Assembly: GCA_034408725.1 (NCBI GenBank)
Contig: JAWXCN010000222.1
Location: 1-61,379, forward strand
DNA from: Candidatus Hydrogenedentota bacterium
Lineage (GTDB): Bacteria > Hydrogenedentota > Hydrogenedentia > Hydrogenedentales > SLHB01
Length of the DNA stretch: 61,379 nucleotides
Reading direction: 5' to 3'
A program made the translations under genes and the position numbers. The notes beneath the pieces are model-generated. The model saw only the letters and a list, made by a program, of their open reading frames with translations. It had not been told where the DNA came from and searched no databases. Positions 3,506 to 15,389 of this stretch are shown one piece after another (positions within the stretch are counted from its first letter, which is position 1; every line of letters starts with the position of its first letter).

Positions 3506-6500
3506 CTACTCGAGTGAAAATCCTTCGTCACTGTTATCGCCCACACTTTTGTACGTTGTGGACACTACACGTACCCGATACCCGCTGCTTGCAGCTAAAT
3601 CATCACGAAATTTGCATTTTTGCTTACCATCGTTGGGAGTAAATTTCTTTAGATTTTTTACGAACTTACCGTTTCGCCACAGTTCCAGACGCACATCATT
3701 TCCAACAATGCCCTCTGATTTCCATGTTACTTTCGATTTCTTTCCAAGCTCCCATACTTCGCCGCCATTAGGACGGCGCATTTGAAGGCGACCGAGATCA
3801 CGCGGATTGGTGCCAGCTTGATATTCTGCAAAGTTAGTCACCCCGTCCAGATCCGCGTCCAAAGGCGCGTCCGCTAGGGATAAGGGATTAAACTGGTACG
3901 CGACTTCCCATCCGTCTGGCATCCCATCCAGATCTGTATCAGCCTTCGCAGGATCAGTCCCAAGTGTAGTCTCCGCCGTGTCCCAGATACCGTCATTGTC
4001 TGCATCATTGTCCAAATAATCCGCAATGCCATCCTGATCTTCGTCTGTCGTGCCCTCGACCGAATCCAGTATAAAGTCTCCGTCTGAATCGGTATCTAGG
4101 TAATTGGGCAAACCATCGCCGTCCGAGTCATTCGCACCTTCTTCCCAATCGGGAATGCCATCTCCATCCTCATCAGTGATGTTGTGTTGGGTCGCGGCGA
4201 GCGTCAGTTCGTCAATCACAACTTCAACCGGATGATCAGCCGCGGTAGATGACGCGATGATAGTTAACAAAACCTCCTGGCCAGCAAAAAGCGAAACATC
4301 AATCCATGGTGTCAGTTGATCTATCCCAGCGAGAATCTCTGTCGACTGAGTTGTACACAATGGAATTCCGTTGACGAATAATTCCAGCATGTCCCCAGCG
4401 TATGCAGATTCAAACCGATAAGCGAATTGTAGGAATTCAGACTCCTCCGGCATCGTAAAAGCGAATTGTGCAGTTGTCGAGGTTGTGGTGCCCATGCTTA
4501 GCGTGCCACTGGAAATCGAGGAGCCCACGCTCAATTGCCAATCGCCCGAATCGTCGAAAGCGTCCACAAAAATCGGAACTAACTCCGTATCGGGCAAGTT
4601 TTTCATTGTTTTTGAGGCAGCTTGCATAACATATGGATAGTAACCGAAGAGTAGCGGAATGGAAGTACGCTTGGGACTCCAAGTCCCTGTTGTAACGTTT
4701 GAATTCATTCCGGCCGAGGTTAAGCCTTGCCAGAAAATCGCGCCATTCGGATCAGTGGTGCTATTAAGTTGGAGATAGTAGCGTCGCATCGCATCGCCCC
4801 AAGCCGTCGAACTAGCTGGCAACTGAGATGGTACATTCGTATCTATAGTGCTTGTAAACCACCAGTATGAGAAACTGTGATCTCTGACTATGCCGGGATT
4901 TGAGATTTCCGTAACGGGAAGGAGTGAAATATTGGATGCAGATTCATATCCGCGCCCTGCAAATTCGGTTATGTAACAATCAACTTTGGTGTCGTCAGCG
5001 GTGAGGTCACTAACCACATCTTGAAGATTGACCTTGACTGGCAGAGCAGGGTACGCACCAGCCAGCAGAATAAGGGATCCAGCTTCCGGAGGATCGAGCA
5101 GCGTAACCCGCTCAGCATGTCTGTCTGACTTTCGAAGTTTATCTGCCGCGTGAGCGGCGACAGCCGCTCCGAGACTGTGGCCGATCAAATGGAGTTTGTT
5201 TGCCGGTCGAACATTTTTCAGCCGTTCCGCAAGTGCATCGGCTTCTACTGGCACTCTATATAAAGGCGGGTACGGGAGCACAATCCAGCCCAATACCGGA
5301 AGCCTCACTTCCAATGAGCGCGCATCATCCAGCCAATTCCAAGCAATAATCTCGCTGTTTGTATCCCGCCGAGCGATGGCTGCAGCCATCTCGCTCATCC
5401 AGTTCGGGAGTGCTGTATCTTCAGCGAAGTTCCAACCATGGATAATTACATACGTGTGCTTGTTTGGGTCGGGCGTCCAGTTTGGAAGTTGACCTCCGAA
5501 TCCTGTTTGTGGGTTCCAAGCTCGTATTTTCAATTGGCCCGGCAACCCCGACGTTTCAGTCTGACTAATGACATTTAGCAATGGCGGCGTGGAATTGGCC
5601 GTATCAGACTGGATTGTGATGATTCCGAATCGGGCTTGATCGCTGGTATTCGGCGAAAGCTGGCTTAATGTGACTTCTCCGGAACCAACACCTGTAGATG
5701 GGGAATCGAATTTCAGCCAGTCTGAGCCTTGATCGATTTGCATTTGCCAATCTGTAGACCCAGCGCCGTTGGCGATTACCTGGACTGCCTTAGATGCCGC
5801 TTTCCCATTTCCTGGCTCGAATACAACGGTCTGTGGGTACACGTCGATGCCTGTTGAAACAGTCCCGGCTTCCTGAGTCAGAGTTGCGATTTGCGGCGAC
5901 CCGGTCGCTCCGGGGGCCGTGACCCGAATTTGTCCCGTGCGTTCGGTTCCAGAGTAGTTCGCGTTGTAATGAACATTAATGATACCTCGTTCCGCGCCTG
6001 CTGCCCCGGAAATGACTCGAAGCCAATCTCCATCAGTTACTTGGGCCGAGTATGTACCACCTGTGTTTGAAATAGTGTATGACGATATTCCTCCTAACCG
6101 CGACACTGAATAATTCGCCGGAGAAATATTAAGCGCACTGTCCATCATGTTGATCTTCGCGATGTAAAGTCCATTGTTCCCCGCCGCCATGCACAGAATG
6201 TCTCCTGAAATTGCCAGTTCCCCTCCGGCATCGAAACTTGCTCGAAGTATTGGGAGAAGCGGATTGGATATATCGATAATTTGCAGCCCTTCGCCGCCTA
6301 GGAATACTAAATTATTCGACACATATACATAGGCGCCAAAAGTTTGCCAAACACTTAACAAAGCTGGATTGGTAGGATTAGAAATGTCAATTATTTCTAA
6401 ACCACCGGTCGTACCGACTAACGCAAGATCAGCAGAAGTAGCTATACTGATTGCTTGGTTGTCAGTCTCAAAAGACTTTAATAAGATTGGGTTGTGCTCA

Positions 6501-8013
6501 TTCGAAATGTCTATTATTTGTATCCCAGAGTTACGAGCGGCTACAATTGCGAGATTACCTGAAACAGCAACTGCAAGCGCTAAATCCGGCATTTCGCAAC
6601 TACCCAGAAGTACGGGTGCCTCTGGATTTGACACATCAACAATCTCAAGTTCGTCGTCTCCTGATAAATATGCTCGATTTCCAACGACAGAAAGTCCAAG
6701 CACGTATGTGGAATATGAGCCACGGAAAGTTGGAGCATTTACATTAGATACGTCAAAAATTCTCAATTCTCCGGCGGCAGCTACATACGCATAATTGCCG
6801 ACAACTGCGATGTCAGTCCCGCCGGATAAATTTGATTCTCCCAATAGCTGGGGGTTTCGCGGATCTGTTAAATCTATAACTCGCATTGCGTGAAATTGGT
6901 CAGCAACAAAAGCTATATTCCCTACCATATCAACGCTTCGCGGGTTATAAGGCGGTGCGGAACTTCCGAGAAAGCTTGGCTCCTCTGGATTTGAAATGTC
7001 TACGATCTGTAAGCCAACGTGACTATCAGCTAGAAATGCGAGCTGATTCGAGATGGCAACTCCATTTGTGTACCATGGCGTATCGTACGTGCTCGAAAGT
7101 CTTGGGTTAGCCGGATTGGAAGTGTTGATAATGTGCAGCCCCTCGTATTCATCTGTAATATAGGTCCGGTTTCCGGAAGTCGCAATGCTCTGCGCCGCCA
7201 TTGATGAGTAATTACCGCGTAGCGCGACGGCACTGGGAATCGAAAAATCTACAATGTGCAGCCCAGTCCCTTCGTCGGCGAGATATGCCAAGTTTCCAAA
7301 AATAGCTATATCTCGCAGACTCCCCGGTGTGTCATACGTGCCAAGGTACGACGGCATCGCAAGATTGGAGATATCCAAGATTTGCATTCCAGATAGGCCG
7401 TCTGCAATTAATGCGTAATTGCCCGCTAAAGCGACTGCGTATGCAAACCCTGGCGTGTCATAACTACCGCGTAAGATAGGTGCAGTTGGATTCGTGAAGT
7501 CAATAATCTGCAGGCCTGACATTGTGTCAGCAACAAATGCAAGATTTCCCAAAATGGCTACACCATGTGCGTTTCCAGGAGTGTTGTAATTTCCGCGCAA
7601 TTCGGGAGCATTTGGATTTGAAACATCTATGATTTGGAGACCAGATACACCGTCGGCCACGAAAGCCAGATTTCCCGAGACAGCTACGTCAAGAGCAAAC
7701 CCAGAGGTATCACAACCACCGAGGAAGATTGGATTCGCTGGATTGGAGATGTCAAAAATCTTTAGTCCCCAGAAATTTCCAGTCGCAACGAAAGCCAGTT
7801 GTCCACTAACGGCAACAGCTTCTGACTCTCCCCCCCAAAACGATCGAGTAATTCAATTTCAATGTCTTCCCCAAGGGCTAAATCTGGAAGAAATAAAATA
7901 AAAAAACTGAATAGAAACAGACCCCACACCACCACGAAAGATTTAAGCGGTATGTGGCAAGCTCGTCTTTCAACCAAGATAGCACCTGTGATGAAGGTTG
8001 AGTTTCGAGGCAT
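3506..8013 (-). CDS. Large exported modular protein (LVIVD repeats, two BACON-like domains, lipase-like alpha/beta hydrolase, Ca-binding DxDGDG repeats, C-terminal Ig-like domain); frameshifted at a G7 tract at 7830-7836
   Basis: Track ORF 3506..7660 is open upstream to about 7830 with further LVIVD repeats (ESEAVAVSGQLAFVATGNFWGLKIFDISNPANP). ATG 8013 with a GGAG RBS and a hydrophobic signal lies in another frame. Hydrolase motifs HGW, GHSLG, LDP. Confidence 0.8.
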
Positions 8014-8309: not shown

Positions 8310-8348
8310 AAAAAAACTGATGGGCCGCAACATCGCTGCTGCGGCCCA
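8310..8348 (-). terminator. Intrinsic terminator closing the small-peptide operon
   Basis: Minus strand TGGGCCGCA-N10-TGCGGCCCA followed by TCAG and T7. Confidence 0.75.
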
Positions 8349-8406
8349 CCTTAAACTACGCTCATGAGCGGGCTCCGATCAGTGCCGGAGCCAAAAACGA
8401 CAGAAC

Positions 8407-8601
8407 CTAGAGGTTGTCGTCGGCGACTTGATCCCGCAGATCAGCGGGGATCAAACGGCCTGTCCAGAAGCCAAAGAACTTCTCGAGGGTCAGACCGATA
8501 ACGACGACGATGTCCGTCCAGTCCGAAATTGCAAAGATGTTTCGCGGCACCAGGTATGCGGGAGCCGGAAGCGCCTTTGAAACGCGACCGATGTGCTTCA
8601 T
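8407..8601 (-). CDS. Small peptide 3 of the MKH-leader family (64 aa)
   Basis: MKHIGRVSKALPAPA-YLVPRNIFAISDWTDIVVVIGLTLEKFFGFWTGRLIPADLRDQVADDNL; RBS GGAGG/GAGGA upstream; leader shared with both neighbours. Confidence 0.8.
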   Translation of the reverse strand: MKHIGRVSKALPAPAYLVPRNIFAISDWTDIVVVIGLTLEKFFGFWTGRLIPADLRDQVADDNL

Positions 8602-8719
8602 GATCCTCAAACCTCCAATGAGTAGTCAGACCGTCACAACGTAAACGAAACCATCTCTCACCCCATGGAGAGAATGGCAGGGCAATACCGGCGAAGAATT
8701 CACCGGCGAGAACCCATCG

Positions 8720-8887
8720 TTACACGTCCCGCGGGTCCAGGGTGCCCAACGTGTTGAAAAGTGCGTTTACGTACAACGCCTTGGCGCTTGCCGCACCGCC
8801 CGATTTCAATTCACCGACACCGGTGAACCAGCCAAACCACCAGGCGGACATTGGTGTGGCCTTTGATATCTTACGAACATGTTTCAT
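8720..8887 (-). CDS. Small peptide 2 of the MKH-leader family (55 aa; not in ORF track)
   Basis: MKHVRKISKATPMSA-WWFGWFTGVGELKSGGAASAKALYVNALFNTLGTLDPRDV*; AAGGA RBS. Confidence 0.8.
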   Translation of the reverse strand: MKHVRKISKATPMSAWWFGWFTGVGELKSGGAASAKALYVNALFNTLGTLDPRDV

Positions 8888-9059
8888 TTGTCAGAGTCCT
8901 TTCGCGAAACTCTCCCATTGCACAGTGCGATGGGTTTCCGTTTTCCAACTGGTTGTGAACAGGAGTTAGTTCGCGGAAGGTTTGGGTGGATAGATGCTGG
9001 AGCTATCCCCTCCCGGTCTCCCTTCCGCTATGGCAAACTCAATTGGTTCGAAACGGCCA

Positions 9060-9212
9060 CTAGTTCTGACGCCAGTTGTCGAACAACGCAACCAGCCAAT
9101 TTGCCTGTTGCGGGCGCAACTTAAGCGGCCCAAAAATGTTCTTCAACTCGACCCACGCAACCTGTTCGGCTGCAATGGGCTTTTTGGTCGATAGCACCTT
9201 CACATGCTTCAT
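9060..9212 (-). CDS. Small peptide 1 of the MKH-leader family (50 aa; not in ORF track)
   Basis: MKHVKVLSTKKPIAA-EQVAWVELKNIFGPLKLRPQQANWLVALFDNWRQN*; strong RBS GAGGAGGTGA 8 nt upstream. Confidence 0.82.
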   Translation of the reverse strand: MKHVKVLSTKKPIAAEQVAWVELKNIFGPLKLRPQQANWLVALFDNWRQN

Positions 9213-9293
9213 ACGGCGACTCACCTCCTCTCTCCTTCCGACTTGTATTCAGTCGTTCGCATTAAAACCGCCGGGTACACCCCAGCCGGGTCT

Positions 9294-9322
9294 ATTGTGA
9301 ACGATTGGAGCTAATTATGCAA
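9294..9322 (-). promoter_or_regulatory. Candidate sigma70-type promoter for the peptide operon
   Basis: Minus strand TTGCAT-17 nt-CACAAT about 80 nt upstream of peptide 1. Confidence 0.4.
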
Positions 9323-9331
9323 CCCCTTGCG

Positions 9332-10906
9332 TTATGGGGTACTTGGGGCCGGTACTGACGGTGTCTCGAACCGCTGGGTCAACAGCGTCAAATCCCCGGA
9401 ACTCAGAAGCAGATCGGATATCTCGTTCCAGAACTCTTCGGTCATCGAGCTCGTGAACAGCGCATCCAGCGCGGTGAAAAATGTATCGAGTTCCCCAATC
9501 CTGCCCGTCAGCGCCTCGATTGAGGCCGTAACGTCCGATACTCCATCCACAGATTCAATTGTGGCGTAGAGAGCCCCCATGGCGTCGAGCGCCTGCGCCT
9601 GGATGTCCATCCCGGCCAGTTGCTCCTGCGAAAAGGTCGCCCCCTCTTCTACCTGCCGTCCCATCTGTTCGACCGCGCGAAAAATATTCTCCGCAGTCTG
9701 CGTATCATTCGCCGACAGAAATACTTGGCCATAGTCTAGCAGATCGCTGGCCAATTGGCAAAGAAATTTGTTCTCTTCGACCCCTGCTGTCAATGCTGAA
9801 ACCAGTCGCGCCGCTTCGGGATCCATGCCCCCGGCAATCAATGCCTCGGCCTGGGCCAGTGCAGATTCCAAAGAATACGCGCTCGCCTTGCCCATGTTCG
9901 CGGCCAGTTCCAGCGATTGCAGCGCGGATTCGGCATTGTTTTCGTCGAGCCGAATCTTGGCCTCATAGTAGTAAGGAAGCGCATTTCCGGGGTCAATATT
10001 CTTGACATCGGTGAGTTGCGCCACTGCCTGGGTGTCGTTCTGCGCAGCTTCAACCGTGTCCGGCGTCTCTTCCTCTGCAATGGCCCGCGCCAGTTGCAAC
10101 CGGCTTGCCGGGTCTTCCGGAAGCTTACCCACCGCCGTAAGTAGAATCCGCCGGGCTTCCTCGCCTCCAAGACTCTCCGCCGCGCCCACCATGGCCTGCG
10201 GCGTGGCATCCGGCGCCAAGGCGACTTCCATCGCCTTGCTCTTGCTCAAGCTCGCCCATTGCAGCAGCCGGTCCATGTTTGCGCCTCCGGCGACATCGCG
10301 GCGCGCCGCCGCGACTTCCGTCACGTTACCGGGCAATTCGATTCGAGGACCCGCAGTCGCCGTAATAATGGTGTCGGGCTTGACGCCGATCCTGCGATGG
10401 ACGTCTTCCCGTTTCTGGTCCAGTTTTTCTTTTTGTCGCACAAAGGTTTCTGGAAGAGCGATCACCACGGGCGGAGCCGTTGCTTCGGGACCACTCGACG
10501 GCGCGGCGATTTGCCTTCCGGGGACGGAATCGTCCCTGCCGCTGGTACGCCACCACTCATATCCCACGTACAGAATCGCCACTGCCGCAATTCCCGCCGC
10601 AACTTTCCACCATGCGCTTCGCGATGCGCGGACTGTCGCCAGCGATACTGGCGACGTTAAGCCATTGACTTTCTGCATGGAGCGCAGCACGGCGTCCACA
10701 ATATCAATCGACGGCATCTCAGGCGCATCGGCACGCACCACCGCGTCCAGGTCGGCATACGCGGCACGCAGCCAGTCCAATTCCGCGCGGTACGCGCCGT
10801 CGCTCGCGATCCGCAGTTCGACACGGGTGCGCGCCTCGAGGCTCAGGTCGTCCTCAAGGTAGGCGATCAGCTCATCGTGGAGCTTATCCATGTCCCCAGC
10901 GTTCAC
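9332..10906 (-). CDS. Putative membrane-spanning anti-sigma factor with a TPR-like extracytoplasmic domain
   Basis: N-terminal LIAYLEDDLSLEARTRVE resembles an anti-sigma domain without the Zn ligands; single TM; helical repeats (DPGNALPYYYEA); GTGA overlap with the ECF sigma stop. Confidence 0.7.
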   Translation of the reverse strand: MNAGDMDKLHDELIAYLEDDLSLEARTRVELRIASDGAYRAELDWLRAAYADLDAVVRADAPEMPSIDIVDAVLRSMQKVNGLTSPVSLATVRASRSAWWKVAAGIAAVAILYVGYEWWRTSGRDDSVPGRQIAAPSSGPEATAPPVVIALPETFVRQKEKLDQKREDVHRRIGVKPDTIITATAGPRIELPGNVTEVAAARRDVAGGANMDRLLQWASLSKSKAMEVALAPDATPQAMVGAAESLGGEEARRILLTAVGKLPEDPASRLQLARAIAEEETPDTVEAAQNDTQAVAQLTDVKNIDPGNALPYYYEAKIRLDENNAESALQSLELAANMGKASAYSLESALAQAEALIAGGMDPEAARLVSALTAGVEENKFLCQLASDLLDYGQVFLSANDTQTAENIFRAVEQMGRQVEEGATFSQEQLAGMDIQAQALDAMGALYATIESVDGVSDVTASIEALTGRIGELDTFFTALDALFTSSMTEEFWNEISDLLLSSGDLTLLTQRFETPSVPAPSTP

Positions 10907-11490
10907 AATTCATCCTTTTCGGCCACATATAGTGACCGCATCGACTTCAGGATACGATGCAGCCGTGTCCGCACGGCGCCTTCCGTGCTGCCCACGACTT
11001 CGGCAATGTCTCGTGCCTGCATGCGTTCAAAAAACCTCAGCCGTACAATTTCGCGCGACTCCGGGTCCAACTTGTCCAGTGCCTTTGCCACCAGCGTGCG
11101 CCGCTCGGCGGACATCAGCAGTTGGTCCGCGCCATCCGCGGGCGATTGCAACAGCTCGCCGGACTCGCCGCGCGCGCTGCTCGCGTATTCCTCAAGCGAT
11201 TCCATCGAGACCGCCTTCTTGCGCTTAATCTCGTTCAGACACAGATTGCGCGCAATACACAGCAGCCACGGCCGGAATTTCCGGGTCGAATCGAACCGGG
11301 CACGAGCCACGAACACCCGGATAAACGTTTCCTGGGACATTTCCTTTGCACGTTCGATGTCGCGGACGTAATGGAGGCTGAACCTGAAAATGTCGCTTTG
11401 GTACCGGCGCACCAGCTCGGCCAGGGCCGCTTGGTCGCCCTGACTGAGGAGAGCCATAAGCTCTTCATCGGTTCGAGTTGCCGCGCTCAC
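10903..11490 (-). CDS. ECF RNA polymerase sigma-70 factor
   Basis: Region 2 (DEELM...QETFIRVF...FRPWLLCIARN) and region 4 (DIAEVVGSTEGAVRTRLHR). Confidence 0.93.
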   Translation of the reverse strand: MSAATRTDEELMALLSQGDQAALAELVRRYQSDIFRFSLHYVRDIERAKEMSQETFIRVFVARARFDSTRKFRPWLLCIARNLCLNEIKRKKAVSMESLEEYASSARGESGELLQSPADGADQLLMSAERRTLVAKALDKLDPESREIVRLRFFERMQARDIAEVVGSTEGAVRTRLHRILKSMRSLYVAEKDEL

Positions 11491-11760
11491 CCGTTAACCC
11501 AAGTCATGCAAGGACTTGCAGTCAAGCCATAACGCGGCAACCGCATCCGGAACCTGTTGACTATACCGCGCACAGGTATAAGCATCACACTCATTATCAG
11601 TTTTCGCAGTCCGGTAGCATTGAATGACTGTCCCCTTCCCGAAAGTTTACGGCAAGCCCAACAAAAAACGCAAAGCAGGTGAAATGCGTAGCAATGCAAT
11701 CGATTCCTACTTTGCGTCCTACAACCCACTTGCATGCACTATAAAAGGGGTAGGTTGATT

Positions 11761-11914
11761 GTGATAAACAGCCAAAGCGGCGCCTTGGGGGCCGCCGCAG
11801 TCCAGATAGGCTTCTTCCTAGAACGTCGTTTTGGGAGAAGGAGCACTTTGGGTCGTGGACTATTTGGACTGCGGTGGCGAAGCGGGTAGCGCAGACACCG
11901 CTTTGGCTGTTTAT
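11761..11914. repeat. REP-like palindromic doublet (CCAAAGCGG...CCGCAGTCC and its inverse)
   Basis: Near-identical units recur at about 26.8, 40.1, 48.8 and 51.5 kb. Confidence 0.85.
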
Positions 11915-12022
11915 AGGCGAGGTCACACTTCTTTCCATTCGCCGGTTGCACCCACGTTCATCTCCCGATACACTCTTGACTTGTCCGCGTCTTTTTGCGC
12001 GCGCATCAACAGTGGGGAAGTC

Positions 12023-13138
12023 ATGGCAACGGGTTTTGCGCAGCCGTCCCGGCTTGCGTCTCTTGATCAGTTTCGCGGGTATACGGTAGCGGGCATGTTT
12101 CTTGTCAATTTCATTGGCAGTTACGACAACGTGCATGCGTTGCTCAGCCATCACAATACGTATTGCAGCTATGCGGACACGATCATGCCGCAGTTTTTCT
12201 TCGCGGTCGGTATGTCGTTCCGGCTTACCTATATGCGCCGCGCCGAAAAAGACGGCCACTCCGCGGCCATGTGGCACGCCGTCACGCGCAACCTCGGCCT
12301 GATGCTTGTGGGTTTGGCCGTCTACGGCATTGCGCGCGATGTTCCGGATACGTGGGACGCAGTGAGCGCGCTGGGGGTTTGGGGTTATGTAACCCAAAAG
12401 CTATCGTGGTCATTTATTCAGACCCTGGTACACATCGCTTTGGCCTCGTTATTTGTGTTGCCCGTAATCGGCGCCAAACCCGCCATCCGCATCATCTTTC
12501 TCACCGTGACAGCAGGCGCGCATGTGTTGCTATCGTACTTCTGGTATTTCCAGTGGAATGAATCCACTTCCGGTACGGTCGACGGCGGTCCGCTCGGGTT
12601 CATGACGTGGTCCATTCCGCTTCTCATCGGTTCGCTTGCGTACGACACCATGGCTGGCCGTGGCTCGAAAGGTTCGCTGAAACCTTTCGCAGTGTGGTCC
12701 GTCGTGTTAATGGTGATTGGGTATGCGCTGGCCTGTCTCAACGTGGTGCACAATCGCATGCTCGGCAACACGGTTTCGCGCTGGCTCGTCGAGCCGCCGT
12801 TTGTTCCGCCATCGCTCCCTGTAGATATGTGGACCATGAACCAACACGCGGGCTCGGCTTCATACCAGATTTTTGCGGCGGGGTTTTCGCTGCTCGTGTT
12901 GCTGTTCTTCATCTGGCTGAGCGATTTGCGCGGCGTGCAATTTGGCGTGTTCCGGACGCTTGGCGTAAACGCGCTCGCCGCGTACATCATTCACGATCTC
13001 ACCGGCAGTGCCATCAAACCACTTGTCCCGGAAGACGCGCCGGCCTACATGGCGGCGCTGAATTTTCTGTTGTTCTTCTGGCTGACGTGGCTATTCTTGC
13101 GGCATCTTGAAAAACACAAATTATTTCTGCGGCTTTAA
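12023..13138 (+). CDS. Heparan-alpha-glucosaminide N-acetyltransferase-like membrane acyltransferase
   Basis: RLASLDQFRGYTVAGMFLVN and YADTIMPQFFFAVG motifs; multi-TM; GVNALAAY. Confidence 0.8.
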   Translation: MATGFAQPSRLASLDQFRGYTVAGMFLVNFIGSYDNVHALLSHHNTYCSYADTIMPQFFFAVGMSFRLTYMRRAEKDGHSAAMWHAVTRNLGLMLVGLAVYGIARDVPDTWDAVSALGVWGYVTQKLSWSFIQTLVHIALASLFVLPVIGAKPAIRIIFLTVTAGAHVLLSYFWYFQWNESTSGTVDGGPLGFMTWSIPLLIGSLAYDTMAGRGSKGSLKPFAVWSVVLMVIGYALACLNVVHNRMLGNTVSRWLVEPPFVPPSLPVDMWTMNQHAGSASYQIFAAGFSLLVLLFFIWLSDLRGVQFGVFRTLGVNALAAYIIHDLTGSAIKPLVPEDAPAYMAALNFLLFFWLTWLFLRHLEKHKLFLRL

Positions 13139-13169
13139 CCCGCCGCCAACGAAACAGGAGCGGTCGATA

Positions 13170-15389
13170 ATGCGCAGTCTTTACATGCCCGCACTCATGG
13201 TGCTCGCACTAATTTTCGCGATGGGCTGTAGCCCGCAGGAATCCGTACCTGCCACAGGACCCGTCACGGAACCTGCACTGCCGCCAGGGAGTGAGCCGGT
13301 GACTCCTCCTTCTGAAGATACGTCCGCGGCGCAGGGCGAAGCAGTGGCGGGCAAACAGGTCACCATTTATCGCGACACCTGGGGCGTGCCGCATATCTAC
13401 GCGGATACCGACGCGGCGGCGGCGTATGGTCTCGGATACGCGCAGGCGGAAGACCGAATCGGGGATATTTACGGCAATGCGCGCATCGCAACCGGTACAG
13501 CGGCCGAAGCGTTCGGCCAATCGCATATCAGAAACGACTTCGGCTTGCAGCTTGTACGCAATGCCGAGGTCGCGCAAAAAAGTTATACCGATGCGCCGGA
13601 CTATCTGCGCGAACTGGTGGACAATTTTGTCGCCGGCATGAACGCTTATATCGAGCGGCATCCGGAGAAAAAACCTGAATGGTCGCTGGATTTCCAACCC
13701 TGGCATTGCTCCGCCATTGGACGCGCCATGATCATGCGTTGGCCGCTTGGCACGGTCGCCGATGATCTCGGCAACAAGAAAGAGCGCACCGGCGCGGGCG
13801 CGTCAAATGAATGGGCTGTTTCTCCCCAACGCTCGGCAACCGGCGGCGCAATCCTGCTCACCGATCCGCACCTTTCCTGGGACGGCATGGCGAATTTCTA
13901 CGAAGCGCGCGTACACGGCGACAAGCTGCATATGAACGGATTCTTCCTCGTGGGCTCGCCATTGCTCGGATTCGGCCATTCGAACCACATTGGCTGGGCA
14001 CCCACCACCGGCGGACCCGATACCTCGGACGTGTTCGAGGTAAAACTCGATATGTCGAATTTCATGAAGCCAAAGTATGAAATGGACGGTCAATGGCACG
14101 ACGTGACTGTGTCCGAAATGAAGGTCCTCGTTAAAGACGGCGAAACGAGAATCCAGCCGCGCATGGAGACCCCGCTCGGACCCATCTTCGATGTAGACCG
14201 CGAAAACATGATCGGATACATCGGCGCGTCACCCTATTTCGATGACGCGAATCTGTTCGAGCAAACCTACCGCATGCTGCTCGCCAAAGACGCGGATGAG
14301 TTTTACGAAGCACTCAGTTTCTGCGCGTTGATGGAACAGAACATCATGTTTGCCGACACCTCTGGCAACATCCAATACGTGCGCAATGGCCGAGTGCCGA
14401 AGCGCAGTCTCGACTACGATTGGAACGCGCCAGTGCCCGCGACCGCCGCTTCGGTTTGGACCGAAATCCATCCCATCGCCGACCTCGTGCAAATCAAGAA
14501 TCCTGAATCGGGTTACATGCAAAATTGCAATATCAGTCCCTTGAACATGATGAAGAATTCGCCAATGACGCCTGACAAGTACATCCCCTACATCTACAAT
14601 GTAACGTGGGACCGGAATAATCCGCGCAGCAAGCGCGCGGTGGAATTGCTTGATGCCGATGCGTCGATCACGAAAGAAGAAGCCATCGCAATTACCATGA
14701 ACGTCTACGACATCCTCGCGAAGCCGTGGCAGGAAGCGTTGGCCGGCGCCATCGAAGGCGCGGGCGCCGACCGCATGAAGGACGAAACATTCGCGAAGAT
14801 TGTAAACAACATTCTCGCGTGGAACGGTGAGTTCCTGCCGGAAAGCAATGCGACCGCCGTGTACAAGGTGTGGCGCATGAAATGCAGCGATAGTGTCAAC
14901 GTCAAGGCCATTGCCGAGCGCGCCACGCTCACACCAGAAGAAAAAACCGCGCTGCTCGATAAACTCGCTGAAGCCATCGCCGAAATGACGGCGACCTACG
15001 GCTCCGCGGAAACGCCCTGGGGTGAAATCTATCGTGTGGGCCGCGGCGATAAATATTTCCCCGTCGGCGGCGCGGACTTCGGGGGATCGACAGACGGGCT
15101 CAACATGTCTGAAACCTTGTTCGACGTGCGGTGCTCGGAAGACCGCGCCAACCCCGGAAAATACATTGCAAACAATGGATCAATGGCAACGATGATCATG
15201 TTCTTCTCGCCCGAAGGCGTCGAGTCGCTCACATGCACGCCGTGGGGACAAAGCGGCGACCCCGCGTCGAAACACTATGTCGATCAGGCTGAAAAACTTT
15301 ACTCCAAACGACAAATGAAACCATCGTGGTGGACCCGGGAAGAAGTGCTTGCCAATCATGAATCGGAAGTTACGCTGGTACTCCCGTGA
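13170..15389 (+). CDS. Penicillin acylase family Ntn-hydrolase (lipoprotein)
   Basis: Lipobox AMGC; IYRDTWGVPHIYA, YAQAEDR, catalytic SNEWAV, DPHL. Confidence 0.92.
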   Translation: MRSLYMPALMVLALIFAMGCSPQESVPATGPVTEPALPPGSEPVTPPSEDTSAAQGEAVAGKQVTIYRDTWGVPHIYADTDAAAAYGLGYAQAEDRIGDIYGNARIATGTAAEAFGQSHIRNDFGLQLVRNAEVAQKSYTDAPDYLRELVDNFVAGMNAYIERHPEKKPEWSLDFQPWHCSAIGRAMIMRWPLGTVADDLGNKKERTGAGASNEWAVSPQRSATGGAILLTDPHLSWDGMANFYEARVHGDKLHMNGFFLVGSPLLGFGHSNHIGWAPTTGGPDTSDVFEVKLDMSNFMKPKYEMDGQWHDVTVSEMKVLVKDGETRIQPRMETPLGPIFDVDRENMIGYIGASPYFDDANLFEQTYRMLLAKDADEFYEALSFCALMEQNIMFADTSGNIQYVRNGRVPKRSLDYDWNAPVPATAASVWTEIHPIADLVQIKNPESGYMQNCNISPLNMMKNSPMTPDKYIPYIYNVTWDRNNPRSKRAVELLDADASITKEEAIAITMNVYDILAKPWQEALAGAIEGAGADRMKDETFAKIVNNILAWNGEFLPESNATAVYKVWRMKCSDSVNVKAIAERATLTPEEKTALLDKLAEAIAEMTATYGSAETPWGEIYRVGRGDKYFPVGGADFGGSTDGLNMSETLFDVRCSEDRANPGKYIANNGSMATMIMFFSPEGVESLTCTPWGQSGDPASKHYVDQAEKLYSKRQMKPSWWTREEVLANHESEVTLVLP

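Follow-up and report, generated by a model that had tools for sequence, protein, structure and literature searches.

We analysed a 61,379-nucleotide (nt) stretch of DNA from a Candidatus Hydrogenedentota bacterium (assembly GCA_034408725.1, contig JAWXCN010000222.1, positions 1 to 61,379; hereafter the window), in which three small open reading frames (ORFs) on the minus strand encode peptides that share a 15-residue N-terminal leader beginning with MKH. Judged from their sequences, these ORFs are real, translated precursor-type peptides, they form a conserved operon with the genes of a sigma factor and an anti-sigma-like protein, and their leader is, as far as we searched, specific to Candidatus Hydrogenedentota. 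Elsewhere in the genome, peptides with an MKH leader head a gene cluster that encodes GNAT acyltransferases, a CPBP protease, an ABC-2 transporter and a protein resembling the maturase CteB; by gene content, the MKH peptides and this cluster make up a leader-dependent peptide maturation and export pathway. We lean towards the reading that the window peptides are satellite precursors that use this cluster in trans. Since such satellites possess the leader and have no enzymes of their own nearby, processing in trans would be the simplest account of them. The three peptides are as follows.

9060..9212, minus strand: peptide A, 50 amino acids (aa), with leader codons at 9212-9168 followed by a 35-aa amphipathic core; family A
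8720..8887, minus strand: peptide B, 55 aa, with the leader and a Trp-rich core ending in ..GTLDPRDV; family B
8407..8601, minus strand: peptide C, 64 aa, with the leader and a core that contains a hydrophobic stretch; family C

The N-termini of peptides A, B and C are MKHVKVLSTKKPIAA, MKHVRKISKATPMSA and MKHIGRVSKALPAPA, respectively, and give the common leader MKH[VI]xx[ILV]SxxxPxxA, in which M1, K2, H3, S8, P12 and A15 are invariant. An earlier reading of the window's letters (the original prediction) had described three co-oriented minus-strand ORFs with ribosome-binding sites and with cores that lack Cys and contain Trp. The coordinates, the N-termini and the Shine-Dalgarno sites, which lie 6–10 nt 5' of each ORF, were all confirmed, and the translated ORFs contained the six invariant residues, with no Cys in any of the three cores and Trp in all three. 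Because the conserved residues are encoded by differing synonymous codons in A, B and C (AAG/AAA, CAT/CAC, TCG/TCA, CCC/CCA/CCG and GCC/GCA), conservation of the leader appears to act at the protein level. The original prediction had also held that a match to an already described family would speak against it; searches of Pfam and NCBIfam returned no family model for peptides A, B or C. At E ≤ 1 the sole NCBIfam match of the peptides was a spurious one to NuoH, with no match to TIGR03973 (the six-Cys-in-45 model), and a search of the ESM Atlas returned unnamed small clusters only. Contigs from RNA libraries (four runs from four studies, of ice and soil) span and bridge the peptide array over positions 8486-9706. 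These contigs are 88–93% identical to the window and hence derive from relatives, so that they document presence in RNA libraries and are no transcript map; they reach little of the sigma and anti-sigma genes, and the uncovered stretches carry no meaning.

Further copies of the leader were then sought, as the original prediction had suggested, by six-frame translation of the source genome (a 5.17-Mb assembly of 280 contigs, 57% G+C and 92% complete) and in 41 related genomes of the order, 24 of them from the same family and 16 from elsewhere in the order. Such copies were found. The strict leader pattern matched four times in the source genome, each match opening an ORF of 46–64 aa, and the fourth of these ORFs lies on contig C150 (8593-8733, plus strand). 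A looser pattern added four ORFs of 32–56 aa on contigs C7, C17, C99 and C200, as well as two apparent chance matches, ORFs of 93 and 172 aa that start with MRH. When the pattern was back-translated to DNA, 45 matches were obtained in 20 of the 41 related genomes (17 of the 24 in the same family), and the same DNA pattern reversed, used as a control, matched nowhere in the 41 genomes. A profile built from 62 leaders detected the leader at E ≤ 0.05 in 32 of the 41 genomes. The counts were 23 of 24 within the family and 8 of 16 elsewhere in the order, and a single genome contains up to 8 copies. No longer protein bearing the leader was seen among 7998 candidates, which is weak evidence.

In a wider scan of one genome per species, covering ~185,000 species, at least 119 stretches contained the leader pattern. 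Among the matches listed, the stretches with multiple hits were all titled Hydrogenedentota or Hydrogenedentes or carried the same A-B-C triad, and the single matches in unrelated taxa were short random frames, near the number expected for a 33-bit pattern. Several genome records titled 'uncultured Nitrospiraceae' or 'Nitrospirales' (loci L073, L091, L094, L097, L113 and others) also contain MKH peptides. One of the loci, L073, carries a full A-B-C array of the type otherwise seen in Hydrogenedentota records, and the taxonomic labels of these records may be wrong.

After A15, the cores of peptides A, B and C are unrelated to one another, yet each belongs to a family conserved across genomes, with the consensus ..AWVELKNIF..NWLVA..DNWLQ. 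in family A, WWFGWF...G[ST]LDP.D[VFY] in family B and Y.VPRN.F..S.WTDIVVVIGL in family C. Small ORFs with a conserved leader and a distinct core, the generic mark of precursors of peptides that are ribosomally synthesised and modified after translation (RiPPs), were thus found here. Further core families include a two-Cys hydrophobic family (D), a KSCGP..DF.GLC family, a Lys/Pro-rich family and others. An alignment of 19 family A sequences has the invariant columns M1, K2, H3, S8, P12, A15 and W39, and the family A profile retrieved 74 clusters from a set of 5.8 billion proteins, the named ones among them all being hypothetical proteins. For A, B and C in turn, pairwise ratios of nonsynonymous to synonymous divergence (dN/dS) over 8–10 orthologues were 0.25, 0.19 and 0.09 in the leader and 0.08, 0.20 and 0.38 in the core, so that leader and cores are both, by this measure, under purifying selection. 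The original prediction had proposed this very comparison and had expected a conserved leader followed by a hypervariable core. The conserved leader and the mutual dissimilarity of the three cores stood; hypervariability did not, since the core ratios of 0.08–0.38 and the recurrence of the families across genomes identify the cores as distinct and conserved families.

These data also bear on whether the ORFs are genes at all, or whether the motif is a nucleotide-level element or a product of chance. Some constraint at the nucleotide level is indicated in family A, where synonymous divergence (pS) is lower in the leader than in the core (0.33 vs 0.66), and by the strong conservation of the spacers. 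The synonymous differences among the three leaders, the dN/dS values well under 1 for leader and core, the presence of a Shine-Dalgarno sequence before all 97 of the 97 peptides read, and the 45 pattern matches against none in the control all speak for coding sequence, and we regard the view that these are not genes as extremely improbable.

Upstream of the peptides on the same strand lie the genes of a sigma factor of the extracytoplasmic function (ECF) type and of an anti-sigma-like protein, and the operon has the following further features.

11564..11589, minus strand: putative autoregulated promoter of the ECF type, TGTGATGCTT-N13-GTA, with the sigma gene ~75 nt downstream
10903..11490, minus strand: ECF sigma factor, 195 aa (Pfam Sigma70_r2, 1.1e-15, and Sigma70_r4_2, 1e-12; TIGR02937, 7.5e-29)
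9332..10906, minus strand: anti-sigma-like membrane protein, 524 aa, in which an N-terminal anti-sigma region is joined by a single predicted membrane helix and a C-terminal domain that is helical and conserved
9221..9240, minus strand: double Shine-Dalgarno CGGAAGGAGAGAGGAGGTGA before peptide A, almost invariant in family A
8888..9059, minus strand: A-B spacer, strongly conserved, with the hairpins GCGGAAGG..CCTTCCGC, GGATAG..CTATCC and CCCAT..ATGGG
8319..8350, minus strand: intrinsic terminator-like hairpin closing the operon 3' of peptide C, with a 14-bp stem and a T run

The sigma factor contains sigma-70 regions 2 and 4 only and its gene adjoins that of the anti-sigma-like protein, as is characteristic of the ECF class; the two genes overlap by 4 nt. 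The anti-sigma assignment is provisional, because the match to the anti-sigma model NF052375 (8.3e-9, 35.8 bits) falls under the cut-off of 100 bits. When 383 neighbouring ORFs from Hydrogenedentota loci with MKH peptides were clustered, the anti-sigma protein recurred in 20 loci and the sigma factor in 14, and other recurrent neighbours were a 202-aa leucine-rich repeat (LRR) protein and BACON/VWA giants around family D, in 5–6 loci. Among the loci read, a family A member came first after the anti-sigma gene and a family B member was usually next. The sequence TGTGAYGTTT-N13-GTA, with identical 13-nt spacing, lies 5' of orthologous sigma genes in nine loci. Within the source genome this promoter motif has a single site (11589-11564) and no second copy, hence none beside the enzyme cluster described below. 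With just this one site, the sigma module seems to have the peptides as its sole non-regulatory output.

The double Shine-Dalgarno (CGGAAGGAGAAGGGAGGTGA) is near-invariant for family A genes, distant genomes included, and a similar sequence, GGAAGGAG, forms the 5' arm of the A-B spacer hairpin. Conservation of the A-B spacer exceeds that of the wobble positions in the genes on either side. A consensus fold from 14 loci has weak covariation, its outer stem being retained in all 14 with G-U changes only, and a search of the operon, spacers included, against Rfam returned no match. Placed after gene A, the spacer may serve in processing, stabilisation or attenuation. A complex prediction for the extracytoplasmic domain of the anti-sigma protein (residues 190-524) with peptide A gave a score of 0.00, which counts neither for nor against an interaction. 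Downstream of the operon, the window encodes a 1384-aa protein (3506-7660, minus strand) with nine LVIVD repeats, BACON domains, a lipase-like domain and TSP3 repeats; in other genomes a different gene, for a sulfatase or UvrD helicase, follows the peptide array, so that the 1384-aa protein probably has no connection with the operon. Divergent from the sigma operon (11831-15389, plus strand) are genes for an Acyl_transf_3 membrane acyltransferase (a weak match) and a penicillin-amidase family protein (PF01804, 5e-117).

The original prediction had proposed that the leader is recognised by machinery encoded elsewhere and had advised a search for co-located processing genes. Beside the window peptides and other satellites that search gave nothing, as no peptidase, transporter or modifying enzyme recurred among the 383 clustered neighbour ORFs, but for the leader family as a whole such genes were present, and to that extent the comparative data support the system that had been predicted. 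The order of the cluster is 1–4 MKH-leader peptides, 2–3 GNAT acyltransferases, a CPBP protease, an ABC ATPase, an ABC-2 permease and a CteB-like protein. We surveyed the 9 kb 5' of the CteB-like gene in 30 genomes from the order. Between one and four ATG-start MKH peptides were found there in 27 of the 30 genomes (53 in total), on the operon strand and 4.0–5.6 kb upstream of the CteB-like gene, and two further genomes (G011 and G014) have the same cluster peptide with a GTG start, so that MKH peptides head the cluster in 29 of the 30 genomes. The remaining genome, G028, has no MKH peptide within 9 kb upstream and a different arrangement there. In the three genomes read first, two or three MKH peptides and two GNAT genes stand directly 5' of the CPBP gene on the same strand, and across the survey the last peptide before the GNAT genes nearly always belongs to one family (..RADAF.DF.N..W.AW.DF.Y.KKNE).

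In the source genome the cluster is divided between two contigs. The cluster peptide (C7:46105-46251) is followed by GNAT genes that reach the end of contig C7. On contig C124, an operon encodes a CPBP/Rce1-like intramembrane protease (PF02517), a DrrA-type ABC ATPase, an ABC-2 permease and, last, the CteB-like protein. C7 ends with the same 99 nt with which C124 begins, so that the two join into one cluster, and the join restores a GNAT gene split over the contig ends. The protease matches PF02517 at 33–44 bits, over the cut-off, and the CPBP motifs EExxxR, FxxxH and HxxxN/D are invariant in the four orthologues aligned, which places it in the CPBP family. Two other candidates for processing enzymes were set aside. 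The genome has two C39 peptidase matches, one in a 280-aa protein beside a sugar-binding protein and one forming part of a 1181-aa ORF; the better match (280 aa) is neither fused to an ABC transporter nor near MKH peptides. A radical-SAM/SPASM protein on contig C235, examined as a maturase, is an anaerobic sulfatase maturase (548 bits).

SCIFF precursors, which we take to begin with MKH[IV]K, prompted a search for a SCIFF-type maturase in the genome. The best match to TIGR03974 (SCIFF maturase) was the CteB-like protein of the cluster, which scored 73 bits against a cut-off of 425 and so lies outside that family as modelled.

G000:C124 2954-4870: CteB-like protein, 638 aa, at the end of the CPBP/ABC operon of the source genome

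The sole relative of this protein by sequence in the PDB is CteB (5WGG/5WHY, E 2.8e-17), aligned over residues 4-427 with the leader-binding N-terminal domain included. Opposite the CNLRCKYC segment of CteB, the alignment places a stretch of the cluster protein that is free of Cys. In their SPASM region, eleven orthologues drawn from the whole order retain CxxCx5C plus one more Cys, and they share a conserved C-terminal GNAT domain. All eleven also contain an invariant DPETCFCFEC in an N-terminal domain that resembles the RiPP recognition element (RRE); its C-x-C-x-x-C is not in CteB and may be a metal or cluster site in the putative leader-binding domain. In an AlphaFold2 model (mean predicted local distance difference test, pLDDT, 69.5), three strands plus three helices make up the N-terminus, the barrel-like core is confidently modelled and a GNAT fold is present, and a Foldseek search with this model returned 5WHY/5WGG at the top (~1e-16), with GNAT enzymes next. 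The gene is present as a single copy in 40 of the 41 genomes of the order. Among 1.84 billion proteins, full-length relatives number 50 representatives at E ≤ 1e-30, and below these come ordinary radical-SAM/SPASM maturases of 450–490 aa at 21–27% identity. As a family, the CteB-like/GNAT protein is covered by no Pfam or NCBIfam model.

The end of the leader was then examined for signs of cleavage. In 89 of 105 distinct Hydrogenedentota peptides the Ala that closes the P..A site is residue 15, and in 9 it is residue 13; P12 and A15 are partly imposed by the search pattern, and also recur in peptides found solely by an MKH..S regular expression. Position -3 of the 89 peptides is Ala in 48 and Val in 21, and Pro never occupies position +1 after the site in the 105. 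The consensus is M-K-H-hydrophobic-x-x-hydrophobic-S/T ... P-[A/V]-x-A. The leader resembles Sec signal peptides in its positive N-terminus, its (A/V)-x-A end, the Pro at -4 and the lack of Pro at +1. Unlike them it has no h-region (at least ~7 residues), as columns 4-11 hold two hydrophobic positions amid Lys, Arg, Ser and Thr, and unlike the double-glycine/C39 class it ends in A-x-A and not in GG, GA or GS; the absence of both export signals had been noted in the original prediction and was borne out. A role of the N-terminal M-K-H as a copper/nickel site of the amino-terminal Cu(II)- and Ni(II)-binding (ATCUN) type was considered and is less attractive if the leader is removed.

The form of this site is also what would be expected if the peptides were exported unmodified, like class II bacteriocins or pheromones, with the leader as an export and cleavage signal for the CPBP protease and ABC-2 transporter or for another exporter; together with the ECF pair, they could then form an autoinduction or envelope-signalling loop. 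The (A/V)-x-A end resembles a cleavage site, the cores are amphipathic or hydrophobic and 30–50 aa long, and the uniqueness of the promoter motif and the large conserved extracytoplasmic domain of the anti-sigma protein fit the same scheme. The number of Cys residues per core is 0 in 83 Hydrogenedentota peptides, 2 in 17 and 1 in 4, which suggests disulfides and hence an oxidising compartment, although these counts include orthologues and are not independent. What unmodified export explains poorly is the retention, with the precursors in 29 of 30 genomes, of three or four GNAT domains and an RRE-like scaffold. We consider it an unlikely account of the peptides, with enough in its favour to be taken seriously.

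For the reading that we lean towards, in which the peptides are processed by the cluster, known peptide systems suggest how each step might proceed. A profile of the leader had no match among PDB chains at E ≤ 10, and a search of open-access full text for MKHIKT-type strings found no paper. A close parallel is with SCIFF/ranthipeptide systems, in which, as here, a peptide of ~45–60 aa begins with a short leader (15 aa in the MKH peptides and 18 aa in CteA), and whose maturase CteB is both the only PDB sequence relative and the top fold match of the cluster protein. Two studies describe how the CteA leader, 18 residues long, adds a beta-strand to the RRE of CteB on binding (PMC6231123, PMC8326336). 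By analogy with CteA and CteB, the MKH-x4-S/T segment would bind the RRE-like domain in beta-strand form. The systems differ in that the MKH peptides have no TIGR03973 match and no Cys-rich core, and in that the cluster protein lacks CX3CX2C and part of the SPASM cysteines and has an added C-terminal GNAT domain. As the radical-SAM cysteines and some of those of the SPASM region are lost and the cores are not Cys-rich, thioether formation is not expected.

Acylation is a candidate for the chemistry of the pathway. In the selidamides, RiPPs are acylated by GNAT enzymes (PMC10849128); there as here, the enzymes are encoded in the precursor-peptide cluster, whereas the leaders here are not of the NHLP/Nif11 type and the three or four GNAT domains of the cluster include one joined to a dead radical-SAM body. 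From this gene content, the GNAT domains may acylate the core. For removal of the leader, two papers on streptolysin S describe SagE, a CaaX-like protease, as the suspected leader peptidase, working with an ABC exporter (PMC4513790, PMC4603692). A CPBP/CaaX-like protease similarly adjoins an ABC ATPase and an ABC-2 permease within the precursor cluster here, and the differences are that the source genome (92% complete) contains no YcaO cyclodehydratase (PF02624) and that the cores are not Cys/Ser/Thr-rich. The gene content and the motif statistics suggest that the CPBP protease would remove the leader after the (A/V)-x-A site and that the ABC-2 transporter would export the product.

Precedents also exist for the arrangement of the precursor genes. 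Prochlorosins are made from many scattered ProcA precursors with one conserved leader and unrelated cores, all served by a single ProcM. The present system differs in its 15-aa leader (as opposed to a long Nif11-type one), in having no lanthionine synthetase, in that its cores form conserved families, and in the location of its satellites in defined regulons. In microbisporicin production, the ECF sigma/anti-sigma pair MibX/MibW governs a lantibiotic cluster, so that there, too, a dedicated pair of this type controls ribosomal peptide production; the pair in the window would drive precursor genes only, its promoter motif being confined, within the source genome, to the window.

Satellite peptides occur in varied surroundings. 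Family D (QD[IV]LC...GG.P.L....KC) was found at loci L003 (C17 12883-13053, minus strand), L044, L046, L049 and L050, and its neighbours in four of these five loci (not L050) are the 202-aa LRR protein and BACON/VWA proteins of 900–1500 aa. At the C17 locus, a GAF/sigma-54 activator lies directly upstream. Other MKH peptides are immediately 3' of outer-membrane channel genes, at L041 (9723-9875, minus strand), L043 (9840-9992, plus strand) and L047 (10173-10379, minus strand); these channels are two phosphate-selective porins O/P, one of them near phoU, and one FadL/TodX protein. The peptide on contig C150 is just 5' of the gene for a CgeB-like protein with glycosyltransferase domains (Glyco_trans_1_2, DUF3880) and an ABC ATPase gene, at the contig end.

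This diversity raises the alternative that the peptides are small envelope or membrane proteins that are left uncleaved, with MKH as a cytoplasmic tag for insertion, turnover or partner binding and with the likeness to the cluster peptides reflecting ancestry only. A single hydrophobic stretch right after the leader in families C and D and in the porin- and FadL-adjacent peptides would fit such proteins, as would the spread of the satellites over varied operons (ECF, sigma-54 activator-adjacent and porin). Families A and E and the Lys/Pro-rich family, however, are without a membrane segment, and a simple tag does not explain the invariant Ala that ends the leader. Moreover, the strict motif in the source genome opens ORFs of 46–64 aa only (32–64 aa with the looser MKH-start matches), and the failure to find a longer leader-bearing protein points, if weakly, the same way. 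We hold this alternative to be improbable.

Several observations weigh against the reading that the window peptides are processed by the cluster. We infer the link between the two from the shared leader and from the lack of other candidates, and their co-occurrence does not discriminate, because the cluster is near-universal in the order (40 of 41 genomes). The cluster is also present in genomes without a peptide detected by the leader profile, for example G025, G028, G030, G034 and G039. Many of the leaders linked to the cluster close with R-A-D-A or K-A-x-A, differently spaced, in place of P-A-x-A. No NCBIfam or Pfam model, TIGR03973 included, matches the peptides, and some family members are hydrophobic and located in porin operons, which would also fit plain small membrane proteins. 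On the side of the CteB-like protein, the CX3CX2C cysteines are missing in all 11 of the orthologues aligned; their loss in every one of these makes radical chemistry unlikely, and the scaffold role proposed for the protein is a guess. The RRE assignment relies on the alignment with CteB and on a model with a pLDDT of 53–84 in that region, and the Pfam PqqD model had no match in the genome.

A more far-reaching version of processing by the cluster, which we regard as speculative and would not expect to hold in full, is that a catalytically dead radical-SAM maturase has become a leader-binding scaffold fused to an acyltransferase and serves peptides of many regulons (its own cluster, the ECF sigma operon, sigma-54 activator loci and porin operons). 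The products would be N- or side-chain-acylated envelope peptides for signalling, membrane remodelling or porin partnering rather than antibiotics, and the window would be a self-contained sense-and-secrete module.

Among the papers listed in a search of open-access full text, none pairs Hydrogenedentes or Hydrogenedentota with leader peptides, RiPPs or bacteriocins, and a search for the combination of SPASM, GNAT, CPBP and RiPP yielded only a general review. By its sequence features, a radical-SAM maturase body that lacks its cluster and is fused to a GNAT domain is unusual, as are precursors under an ECF sigma factor and a place among the core genes of an order. Hydrogenedentota, a little-known phylum, are uncultured and have hardly been studied, and in them a 15-residue leader unites up to 8 small genes per genome, most of them below the standard length of gene callers; overall, the findings point to an undescribed family of processed peptides. 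If the link between the window peptides and the cluster is true, these peptides would form a new class of ribosomal peptides, in which a dead radical-SAM/SPASM body is kept for substrate binding and the chemistry is that of GNAT enzymes, and one maturation system would be fed by precursors under separate regulators. The ECF sigma/anti-sigma pair would thereby gain a defined output, and the leader profile and the cluster together would provide a search handle for annotating such peptides in metagenomes.

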